A DNA stretch of 64,000 nucleotides from a virus: IMG/VR virus record IMGVR_UViG_3300025167_000008, positions 15,561 to 79,560 of that record. One strand, written 5' to 3'. Shown piece after piece: positions 61,047 through 64,000 of this stretch. The notes beneath the pieces are model-generated. The model worked only from the letters and a program-made list of their open reading frames with translations, was not told where the DNA came from and ran no database searches. Position 1 is the first letter of the stretch; each line of letters starts with the position of its first letter. The translations under genes were made by a program, and so were the position numbers.

Positions 61047-62820
61047 ATTATACAACAAAATTAGCTGTTATTTTATGTGTATTAGTAACACCATTTATTC
61101 TAATTATCTTATTTGTGCCACCTTATGAACAGCCAGAGTTTAAAGATCAATGTGTAAAGGATCATATTGAGACTGTTTGGATAGTAATGTATGCTGGAAA
61201 TGGTATATATTACCCCATGCAAATACCACAAGTAGTGTGTGATGAATATAAACAAGTTCCGAATACATTGTACAAGGGGAAGGTAAAATGAAAACAGAAA
61301 TAACATTATTTTATAAATGTGGATGTAGATATGAATTCATTAAAACAGGAAAGGGAAGTTCGGAGTTACTTTCAACTGATTTTTGTGTATTGCATTCAAT
61401 AGAACATGATAAACAATTAGTGATGAATTAATGAAAACAAATAATCCATTAAAGTGTTCAAAGTGTAAAGCAAGCAAAGCAGAAGATAAATATTACCCAT
61501 ATTGTTCTATAGAGCATTGGACAGAAGCGGTGACTAAACCATGAGATATTATTGTGGAATATGTTGGAACACAGTAAATCCAGATGGTTGTGCTTTTTAT
61601 TGTCCTAATGATAATCATCTTATGGATAAAGAAATGATAAACTGGATAGATGCAAGTATTGTTTTTGATATAGAGAAAGCTGATTTTGTGACGCATTATC
61701 ATGAACCCGCATATCAAAAGGTGGATAAACTATGAACTTTAAAAAATGCTTAGTGTGTGGTAGTAGATTTTTTTGCCCTAGAAAAATATTAGATTGGGGA
61801 ACAGCAGAAAGACTCTATGGGGTAAAAAAACCATGAAAATTGAAATCACAGTAGGAAAAGATGTAGAACGTATAGAGATGCCAGATAAATGCGATAGGTG
61901 TTTTGAAGGTCGTCATTGCTATGGAGGAGGAAAGAATTTATTAGGTAAGATATGTATGTGCATATGTGATAAACCATGACTTGTATATGCTGTTGGTATG
62001 CAGGAATGACAGAAGAAGAAAGTGAGGAATATCATAAGAATGACTGAATGGGGAAATTTCTGGATAACATGTTTAACATGTGGTAATAAAAGACATACAG
62101 GAACTGACTTTAACGCTAGATTAATAAAGGAGGCACATGAACACAATCATATAGGGCATATGTGTGAGATAAAAAATGAAAAGATGTAAGAATAGACACC
62201 CAACATATGGAATGCGTTGTACTAGAGAATTCGGGCATAAAGGACAATGTAAAGGAAACCCAAAAGATATACAAGATGTGGTAAATGATGCGTATTAAGA
62301 TATTCAAGTGGTATATTGATTGGATTATGACACCAGTAGCATATGCTGAACACGAGTGTTTAAATCAAATAATGGAAGGAACTTATTCTTGCGAGTATTG
62401 CTATCCCCCATGTAAGAAATGTGGAAGAGATACTGCAGAATGGGGAGTTAATTGTAATAGTGTAGACGGATGTGATTTTGATGTCAGAAAAAGAATAAGT
62501 GATTCTTGTGGAGGAGAAAGCATTGACTAATCCTTTTGAATGTGGAACATTGGCACATGGAGCATGGGAAAGCATGACGGGAGAATCTAACTGTGATAAG
62601 AAAAAGGAAGAACCAACAAGACCAAGAAAACACAGACAGCCAATAACAATACCTGATTGGAAATCATTCGAAGACTTTAAGAAAGCTTGTGGATCGGCAT
62701 AATGAGCCGAATGATGAGGGGCGAATCAAAGACATCACGCTTTGAAACTGGTAAGCCCTCGGCTCGTATATTACATATAAACAACTAATTAAATAAACTT
62801 TAGTTTGTAATTTTTTACAA

Positions 62821-62857: not shown

Positions 62858-63064
62858 ATGACCAAAACCGCATTATGTGATCTTTGTCTCATTGAGGATA
62901 AAGTTACCATTGCAAAATTTTCTACATCTACTGTGATAAGTGGTACTAGAATAGCAGTTTGTACAAGTCATCGTATAGCTGTTAAAAAAATCGCTGTAGA
63001 TACAAATCAGGTTATGGCTCTAATAAGTAATGCTACAAATAAAGTAAATACTTTAAGAGTATAA
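62858..63064 (+). CDS. Small zinc-binding protein (leaderless)
   Basis: CDLC...VCTSH; monocistronic between promoter and T-tract. Confidence 0.65.
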   Translation: MTKTALCDLCLIEDKVTIAKFSTSTVISGTRIAVCTSHRIAVKKIAVDTNQVMALISNATNKVNTLRV

Positions 63065-63084
63065 TCATATTTTTTTTTAAACAT

Positions 63085-63120
63085 ACAAGAATTTATATAC
63101 CCCTTAATACACAATATATT
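63085..63120 (+). promoter_or_regulatory. Conserved TATA promoter, copy 6 (no ORF downstream)
   Basis: ACAAGAA TTTATATACCCC TTAATACACA at 63092. Confidence 0.75.
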
Positions 63121-63121
63121 T

Positions 63122-63304
63122 GCTGACGGTAAGCTTAGTCGCTTCACAGACAGAACTCCTTCCGAAGCTGGGAGATTGCTGATATCTGAGTGATTGAAAA
63201 ACAAATCCCTGTTATGCTTCGGCACAGGGTAAAATAATCGTAGGCGTTGACTGTAAATCAGTTGCCGTTGGCACTCTTACTAATAGGTTAAATACTTCCT
63301 TTTT
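63122..63304 (+). ncRNA. Candidate ~180-nt structured ncRNA
   Basis: Starts 30 nt after conserved TATA; GC-richer; CCCTG...TGC-TTCG-GCA-CAGGG hairpin; TCAC/GTGA long stem; ends in T-tract. Confidence 0.65.
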
Positions 63305-64000
63305 GTATAATATGGTATGGATTTATACTGTGATGTAATAGAAACAATAGAATCAAAAGAAGGACTAACATGGATATACATAAAAGATAATCATATTAAA
63401 GATACAGTCTTTTGGACTTGGGAACAATTATACAAATGTGTGATATCTAAATGAAGTGTAGATTTTGTGATGATGAATTTACTATGGTAATAGCACCAAG
63501 AGATAAGGAAACTGATTTATCATTATGCAAACAGCATTTAATGTATATTACGAGGATAGGTAATAGGATATGAGTTACACAGCGGAATTTTGGAAATTAA
63601 GGAAATGTGGAAGACATAAAGGGCAATATATTTATTATAAAAATCTAACTGTAGATCATATCTCAGATCTAATAGTTGGTAGCTTCTTCAAAATGATGAA
63701 CAAAAAGGGGAACCTCCACAAGTATTACATAGATAGAAAAGAACATATATATTATGATACCAAGAAAGAATACTACGTGCAATACTTTATCAGGGAGATT
63801 AGATAATGGTTACAATACAAGAAATAAATGAAGACATACAAAAGGAATATGAATTTATTTTGACTGTAAAAAGGAAATCTGACGGACATGAAATCAAAAT
63901 GGCATTTACAAAACTACATGAAGTATTTGATATAGATTTTGTGGCACAATTAGTTCAACACATAAGAAAAACTGAAGGTGAAAAACATGAATAAAGATTT

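Follow-up and report, generated by a model that had tools for sequence, protein, structure and literature searches.

A 151-nt segment on the plus strand of a viral genome (63122..63272), which begins exactly where a conserved promoter is predicted to start transcription, is very probably a real structured RNA gene, and a genuinely undescribed one. It is delimited by matches to a covariance model (R1) and by covariation among relatives. Taken as a whole, our best explanation, which we regard as reasonably likely, is a stand-alone structured RNA gene whose product would most likely act in trans as a protein-binding scaffold or decoy. The window, that is, the whole 64-kb stretch of DNA that was analysed, is part of an 80.7-kb IMG/VR virus record, has a GC content of 32% and carries nearly all of its genes on the plus strand. 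These genes include an MCM helicase, a Rad51/RadA-type recombinase, a Prim-Pol and a large terminase, and PCNA is encoded on related contigs. Considering this gene content together with the promoter architecture described below, the source fits an archaeal tailed virus. Near-identical DNA was present in many soil and sediment metagenomes, and single-protein scans of genome contigs with the MCM and RadA proteins gave no match.

Relatives of the RNA were recovered from ENA, JGI and Logan assemblies by means of the proteins that flank the element. Together with the window version (W), five distinct sequences from one narrow clade were obtained; the four further variants came from soil and sediment metagenomes and were 75-97% identical to W. 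The L024-type was 97% identical (R1 score, 184 bits), the L021-type 96% over the shared core (271 bits), the L020/L048/L180-type 88% (266 bits for L020/L180), and L178, the most divergent and detected with R1, about 78%, with ~23% of core positions different (128 bits, E value 1e-30). Three of the four variants (L020, L021, and L178) contained an extra domain of 65-96 nt, giving total lengths of 217-247 nt compared with 151 nt in W.

The promoter motif is about 35 nt long, takes the form ACAAACAAG..TTTATATACCCC..TAGTATATA.., and occurs in six copies in the window, all of them on the plus strand. Five of the six copies are followed by an ATG that lies 30 nt (once 32 nt) past the first T of TTTATATA. 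Copy 6 (63080..63121, plus strand) comprises an upstream ACA(T/A)ACAA block, the TATA box TTTATATA at 63092-63099 and the spacer that separates this box from the predicted start; the nearest ATG is 122 nt on and opens a frame of only seven codons. The first-pass annotation had remarked that this copy has no open reading frame (ORF) at +30, and it is the GC-richer RNA of 151 nt that begins exactly at this position (63122). A TATA-like box (TTTATATA or TTTTTATA) starts exactly 30 nt before the terminal helix of the RNA, P1, in all five variants (W, L024, L021, L020/L180, and L178), and this spacing is the same as that between the TATA box and the ATG of the five sister genes (32 nt in one of them). 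Moreover, the first base of P1 was a purine (G or A) in every variant, and where it was A, the 3' pairing partner had changed to U. In archaea, the TATA box is normally centred about -26/-27 from the transcription start, the start is a purine, and a start at the A of the ATG gives a leaderless mRNA. A box beginning at -30, as found here, has its centre near -26/-27 of the predicted start, as expected of an archaeal TATA-box unit. Since the box lies 30 nt before P1 in all variants, the predicted first transcribed nucleotide coincides with the first paired nucleotide of the RNA, and we infer that transcription starts at G63122.

Promoters of this class contain an inverted repeat, TATATAC-N6-GTATATA, which is degenerate in the RNA copy of the window (63092-63121, with TACACA) and nearly intact in the RNA promoter of L021 (with GTATATG). 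Given this difference, a regulator that binds the palindrome may act on the RNA gene differently between strains.

The segment does not look like a protein-coding gene. Its GC content (0.41-0.44, against 0.32 for the window) agrees with the GC-richer tract that had been reported behind copy 6. No ORF of at least 25 aa was found on the plus strand within 63065-63316, and the plus strand of W has stops in every frame; one plus-strand frame is open in L021, and it is closed in W and L020. A TTG-initiated frame of 20 codons was rejected because it is not kept (TTA in L020). On the minus strand, an ORF of 72-140 aa is open in W, L024, and L020, is split in L021 and is frame-shifted between variants. 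A public gene call of 140 aa made by a gene finder (L020:702-1124, minus strand) runs antisense across the RNA locus; this call is almost certainly spurious, considering the frame shifts between variants, the split in L021 and the antisense orientation relative to the virus genes. Indels of 1, 2, 3, and 65-96 nt distinguish the variants and break the reading frames on both strands. To judge from these changes and from the covariation described below, selection is on the RNA fold and not on a protein. Four runs labelled as metatranscriptomic contained a small share of the sequence words, and these runs were flagged as probably DNA.

Folding of the single sequence was not better than that of shuffled sequences (z = -0.87 for 185 nt and -1.86 for 157 nt), so relatives were needed as evidence. 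In an ordinary MAFFT alignment of the five variants (A5), which was not fitted to any structure, the final fold comprised 63 pairs, and 98.2% of the cells were paired. Compensatory double changes occurred at 15 pairs spread over ten helices, four of them contributed by lineage L020 and most of the others by L178. The mean for shuffled alignments was 5.0, none of 500 column shuffles reached 15, and structures slid by 1-3 columns had only 0-2 compensatory pairs. The alignments A3 and A4 gave similar results. The presence of eight G-U pairs and of changes among G-U, G-C, and A-U identified the plus strand as the folded strand. In W and L024, the final fold was 1.7-3.2 kcal/mol above the minimum free energy.

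These data bear on the alternative that the segment is a decaying gene remnant or a spacer that folds by chance and hence no functional RNA at all. The unremarkable single-sequence z-scores and the very narrow distribution of the family would suit such a remnant; the 15 compensatory pairs in ten helices, the 98% of cells paired, the start of P1 exactly at promoter +30 in all variants and the retention of the element while neighbouring genes were exchanged do not, and we hold this alternative to be very improbable. The claim of the first-pass annotation that the promoter drives a non-coding structured RNA is well supported by the position of P1 in five of five variants, by the compensatory pairs and by the frame-breaking indels on both strands. 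Conservation in relatives extends to helices P1, P2, P3, P5, and P6, and does not extend to a GAC/GTC helix or to the loop of P6, both of which had been part of the original proposal.

The overall layout consists of two nested three-way junctions, P1/P6/P2 and P2/P3/P5 (all features on the plus strand). The 5' strand of P1 (63122..63130) pairs with its 3' strand (63264..63272) over 9 bp, three of them G-U, and two P1 pairs are compensated: G1-C is replaced by A-U in L020 and L178, and G8-C by A-U in L178. The 3' strand of P1 had been read as a TGCC/GGCA hairpin, which is not supported. A 2-nt linker (AA) after the 5' strand leads to P2 (63133..63137 with 63241-63245), which is paired in all five variants; two of its positions vary, exchanging only G-C or C-G with G-U or U-G. 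P2 is followed by the long, irregular P3 arm (63138..63194), with its tip loop at 63161-69. Its basal helix P3a (63138-43/63189-94) shows a U-A to A-U replacement in addition to changes among G-U, G-C, and A-U, and its tip helix (63156-60/63170-74) a C-G to U-A replacement; P3b (63147-50/63185-88), P3c (63151-53/63179-81), and P3d (63154-55/63176-77) are invariant in all variants and carry no covariation information. The CTCC/GGAG helix described earlier is the tip of P3 and is backed by covariation. A first RNAalifold fold based on four sequences had five compensatory pairs and contained a hairpin GUC/GAC and a helix AUUGCU/AGUGAU in place of P3a. L178 breaks three pairs of these helices, and the very substitutions responsible act as exact compensations in P3a (GUCGCU/AGUGAU), a helix that the minimum-free-energy fold of W contains as well; the first fold was therefore abandoned. 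The GAC/GTC helix of the first-pass annotation is likewise broken in L178, and its long TCAC...GTGA stem is supported by covariation in another register (TCGC/GTGA).

Within the P3 arm, an AUA bulge (63182..63184) is the single insertion point of the extra branched domain of L020, L021, and L178; the point is flanked by a GAU repeat, and the inserted domain has helices of its own with four compensatory pairs. We also compared this region with box C/D (K-turn) sRNAs. In the long variants only, UGAUG and CUGA sit astride the insertion point, beside a short helix, which resembles the box C/D arrangement (UGAUGU with CUGA). However, a 3-nt bulge with tandem G-A pairs cannot be drawn, only a 1-nt bulge, and there are neither C'/D' boxes nor guide spacing; the short variants W and L024 do not have the domain, and Rfam has no C/D match at the locus. 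With no canonical K-turn or C/D geometry drawable, this candidate was rejected.

An A-rich joining strand, parts of which are invariant, connects P3 to P5. The P5 hairpin (63207..63229) has an internal loop and a C(UUCG)G cap, with GCUUCGGC invariant; in L020 it shows C-G to U-A and U-A to A-U replacements, and in L178 the stem is kept with one bulged U. It corresponds to the CCCTG-TGC(TTCG)GCA-CAGGG hairpin with a C(UUCG)G tetraloop recognized in the first reading, and covariation supports it. A second joining strand leads from P5 to the 3' strand of P2, and a linker (GUU) from there to the P6 hairpin (63249..63263; GACUG, loop UAAAU, CAGUU), which adjoins the 3' strand of P1. Four of the five P6 pairs are compensated, the stem being GGGGA/UCCCU in L178 and GACC/GGUU in L024.

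P6 was the centre of the earlier suggestion that the RNA is a tRNA mimic, serving as a decoy for anticodon nucleases or synthetases. In W, the sequence TTGA-CTGTAAA-TCAG can be drawn with a 7-nt loop that has the U33-GUA-A37 features of a tRNA-Tyr(GUA) anticodon arm; furthermore, as in tRNA, no spacer separates P6 from the 3' strand of P1, and the 5' strand leads into a 2-nt linker. The hairpin itself is real, in a different register (GACTG/CAGTT with a 5-nt loop), and its loop is not conserved: it is UAAAU (CTGTAAA in the other register) in W and L021, AAA in L024, AAAA in L020, and UAGUA in L178, that is, 3-5 nt. Because both the length and the sequence of the loop change between close relatives, there is no conserved mimic of an anticodon loop, and the stem co-varies while the loop differs between lineages. 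A T-arm with a GTTCRANNC-type loop, a D-arm, and CCA are all absent, and P1 has 9 bp rather than 7 and is followed by A-C-(U/C)-U. ARAGORN detected no tRNA gene in the window, nor any in 63000-63400 when introns were permitted and the thresholds relaxed to 70-80%, and Infernal searches against Rfam gave no tRNA or tRNA-like match. A tRNA mimic is accordingly scarcely credible. The stacking of a hairpin on the 3' strand of a terminal helix, with a 2-nt linker after the 5' strand, is a likeness shared with tRNA, viral tRNA-like structures and bacterial YrlA-type Y RNAs, from which the RNA differs in lacking a T-loop, a D-arm, CCA and a conserved anticodon loop and in its 9-bp P1.

Outside the five variants, no homologue was encountered. 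Rfam 15 at the gathering threshold assigned no family in the window and nothing in the long variants L020 and L021, and at E values up to 10 only four chance-level matches (14-19 bits) were listed for the window. Blastn against the INPHARED phages gave no match to the RNA. Sixteen distant viral relatives were found through a neighbouring 393-aa protein (about 42% identity), and blastn, nhmmer and the covariance model recovered no RNA homologue from them, nor was there one in the whole records of nine of these relatives, including one complete 172-kb genome. One distant relative carries a short ORF (L006:20690-20790), the product of which we take to resemble a PqqA-type precursor peptide. Exact-pattern scans of IMG/VR and JGI metagenomes returned the known variants and chance matches only. 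Among the latter, the coding sequence of an unrelated IMG/VR contig (L238:650-690) is identical to the P3 tip region at 28 of 30 nt; no RNA is detected at this site by the covariance model, so we attributed the match to chance in the pattern scan. In 156 Nitrososphaeria genomes (5 + 151), a group to which the assignment of the host is indirect, R1 had no match at E < 0.09 and only noise at ~0.1-0.6, and an origin of the RNA as a viral copy of a cellular RNA is not supported, as no homologue was found in the genomes searched. A mimic of a host repeat or CRISPR repeat was rejected, since the matches of a conserved 17-mer in 401 genomes equalled those of the reversed-pattern control. No paralogue was found elsewhere in the 64-kb window. 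Being missing from the rest of the window, the Nitrososphaeria genomes, host repeats, and IMG/VR and JGI beyond the known variants, the RNA family appears to be specific to viruses and is known so far from a single narrow clade in soil and freshwater sediment. In a survey from 2025 that covers the viruses of ammonia-oxidising archaea (10.1101/2025.08.23.671958), we came across no mention of non-coding RNA.

The 3' boundary is less sharp than the 5' one. The first-pass annotation had extended the RNA to 63304 (~180 nt); the start at 63122 holds, and 63272 is the last base of the structured core. Directly after P1, A-C-(U/C)-U is present in all variants, and the following tail (63273..63304, plus strand) contains T-rich runs that form a possible termination zone. 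These runs are TT and then TTTTT (63299-63303) in W, TTTT and TTTT in L024, and TTTT and TTT in L020, and L178 has none of at least 4 nt, so that the T-tract at 63299-63303, which had been listed as part of the RNA, is not conserved among variants. Without a conserved T-tract after P1, the 3' end is undefined and read-through into the next gene is possible. That gene has its own TATA-like box (TTAAATAC, 63287..63294, plus strand) with an ATG at 63317, 30 nt downstream; the box is conserved in W, L024, L020, and L021, and in L178 a separate box (TTATATAG) precedes the next ATG by 30 nt. The next gene is thus equipped with a TATA-like box about 30 nt before the ATG in each context.

The neighbours of the RNA vary. 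Upstream of the RNA and its promoter there is a 68-aa gene in W, L024, L020, and L021 and a 113-aa gene in L178; downstream there is a 45-aa gene in W and L024, a homologue of the 78-aa gene (63570-63806 in the window) placed directly after the RNA in L020, L021, and L178, and an SNase-domain gene in L180. The 45-aa and 40-aa genes of the window (63317-63573) are absent in L020 (1066-1100) and L021 (582-600), where the 78-aa homologue follows the RNA directly and the junction TTTGTATAAYAT is shared; this suggests cassette exchange at gene starts. From the arrangement of these contigs, the RNA gene travels as a cassette with its own promoter, and its position between varying neighbours, along with separate downstream promoters, indicates a stand-alone unit and not a leader.

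The reading of the element as a cis-acting 5' leader, a riboswitch-like or processing signal that serves the downstream small genes by read-through of a weak T-tract, has to be weighed at this point. A multi-helix junction closed by P1 right after the promoter resembles the layout of an aptamer, and the T-runs after P1 are weak and variable enough for read-through to be plausible; in riboswitch aptamers such as the lysine and cobalamin classes, P1 likewise closes nested junctions and the joining regions are conserved. Yet in every context a promoter intervenes before the next gene (a TATA-like box 30 nt before its ATG), the downstream gene is not constant (45-aa, 78-aa or SNase-domain), the neighbours are not metabolic, no riboswitch family matches, and the virus is archaeal. 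We consider a cis-acting leader distinctly unlikely. The put RNAs of phage HK022, as stable small RNAs of a phage, offer a comparable situation, a short structured RNA directly after a viral promoter in a block of small genes; they show no similarity to the present RNA in sequence or fold, and they act in cis on a bacterial RNA polymerase, unlike the archaeal polymerase and separate next-gene promoter here.

Two further features of the neighbourhood deserve record. The 68-aa protein (62858-63064), whose gene is placed under promoter copy 5 and is absent in L178, has a CxxC...CxxH pattern and is a possible zinc ribbon; it has no Pfam match, and the homologues found were only the variants' own copies (at least 90% identical). 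Directly upstream of promoter copy 5 lies a GC-rich element of ~66 nt (62704-62769) with a 7-bp terminal inverted repeat (GAGCCGA/UCGGCUC) and AUGAUGA right after the 5' arm. It is kept in W, L024, L020, and L048 despite different upstream genes, and contains one or two extra repeat units of ~20-25 nt in L020 and L048; it may represent another small RNA, a structure at a 3' end or a site bound by a protein.

Several unpaired or capping parts of the RNA are strictly conserved. CCGAAGC in the apical loop of P3 (63162..63168, plus strand) is identical in five of five variants, with differing flanking loop bases. Also invariant, even in L178, are the P5 cap GCUUCGGC, CAGACAGAA with its partners, GAUAUCUGAG, and parts of the A-rich joining strands. 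CCGAAGC is a perfect 7-nt complement of 63216-63222 in the P5 cap, with a predicted duplex energy of -10.4 kcal/mol, and the 7-mer GCTTCGG or its complement has three occurrences on either strand of the 64-kb window, including these two loops. The P3 loop and the P5 cap could hence make contact within or between molecules; both loops are invariant, and the cap, a UUCG tetraloop, is closed by a UGC/GCA helix with a compensatory change.

Such contacts raise the idea of a self-associating assembly RNA, in which the P3 loop CCGAAGC would pair with the P5 cap GCUUCGG either of another copy or, as kissing loops, of the same copy, giving a multimeric scaffold or a conformational switch. In phi29 pRNA, a terminal 5'/3' helix and a three-way junction are combined with "hand in hand" loop-loop pairing between copies. 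The terminal helix and three-way junctions of our RNA match that layout, and the perfect complementarity and duplex energy of the two invariant loops agree with it. The closed, covarying UGC/GCA helix and the stable UUCG tetraloop, however, leave the bases of the P5 cap unavailable; by our estimate, chance alone would give about 0.6 inverted repeats of seven nt in a 150-nt sequence, and pairing between invariant loops gives no covariation signal. Rfam yields no pRNA match, and the gene lies 12 kb from the terminase gene. Self-association therefore has only a slender chance of being correct. The comparison with phi29 pRNA (RF00044) can be drawn further, since both are encoded by a virus, are about 120-170 nt long and have a promoter of their own, and both join a 5'/3' terminal helix and a three-way junction core with two mutually complementary loops. 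This resemblance is topological only: there is no sequence or covariance-model similarity to RF00044, the RNA here belongs to an archaeal virus whose large terminase, 12 kb distant, is of the ordinary kind, a closed UUCG tetraloop hairpin takes the place of one of the "loops", and multimerisation is putative. A self-associating scaffold that builds a multimeric ribonucleoprotein by linking copies or by switching the fold, as an archaeal counterpart of phi29 pRNA or as an anti-defence RNA sponge with no cellular relative, would be a bold reading, and we give it a small chance.

The invariant single-stranded segments might instead be seeds of a base-pairing regulatory RNA that pairs with viral or host mRNAs and alters their translation or stability. 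Base-pairing small RNAs are established in archaea and phages, and an own promoter, the size of a small RNA and the invariant P3 loop and A-rich joining strands would all be in keeping with one. On the other hand, typical seed-based regulators have much less structure than this RNA, the conserved loops here comprise few nucleotides, there is just one further copy of the 7-mer GCTTCGG in the 64-kb window, and no target was identified; such a regulator seems unlikely to us.

We propose the following for the stand-alone RNA gene. An independent gene of an archaeal tailed virus would give rise to a stable, highly structured small RNA, 151 nt long here and 217-247 nt among the relatives. Transcription by the host RNA polymerase would begin at G63122, which lies 30 nt past the first T of the TATA box and corresponds to the A of a leaderless ATG in the sister promoters. 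The ends of the transcript would then pair, its first nine and last nine bases making up P1, so that P1 would close a three-way junction with P6 and P2, and P2 a second one with P3, bearing the optional branched extension, and the UUCG-capped P5. During infection, the RNA may act in trans as a protein-binding scaffold or decoy, recognized through its invariant unpaired parts, namely the P3 loop CCGAAGC, the P5 cap GCUUCGGC and the A-rich joining strands. That the RNA stands alone and acts in trans is likely in our judgment; that it is a protein scaffold or decoy rather than a base-pairing regulator is a tentative preference only. The data show the promoter spacing, the lack of a coding frame, the covarying fold with its plus-strand polarity and the mobility of the gene as a cassette; the transcription start, the extent of the transcript at its 3' end, action in trans and protein binding are put forward on the strength of the architecture.

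To our knowledge, archaeal viruses have hardly been explored for structured non-coding RNAs. Considering the narrow distribution of this family, its importance is potential rather than established, and its function is read from anatomy and context. The RNA gene is nevertheless compact and well delimited, with a predicted start, a fold backed by covariation, an optional expansion domain, invariant loops and the behaviour of a cassette among small, early-type genes. The TATA +30 rule would supply a promoter-to-transcript model for a lineage in which viruses and hosts are not routinely cultured together, and the RNA may offer a handle on how archaeal viruses use stable RNAs in host takeover, anti-defence or assembly.
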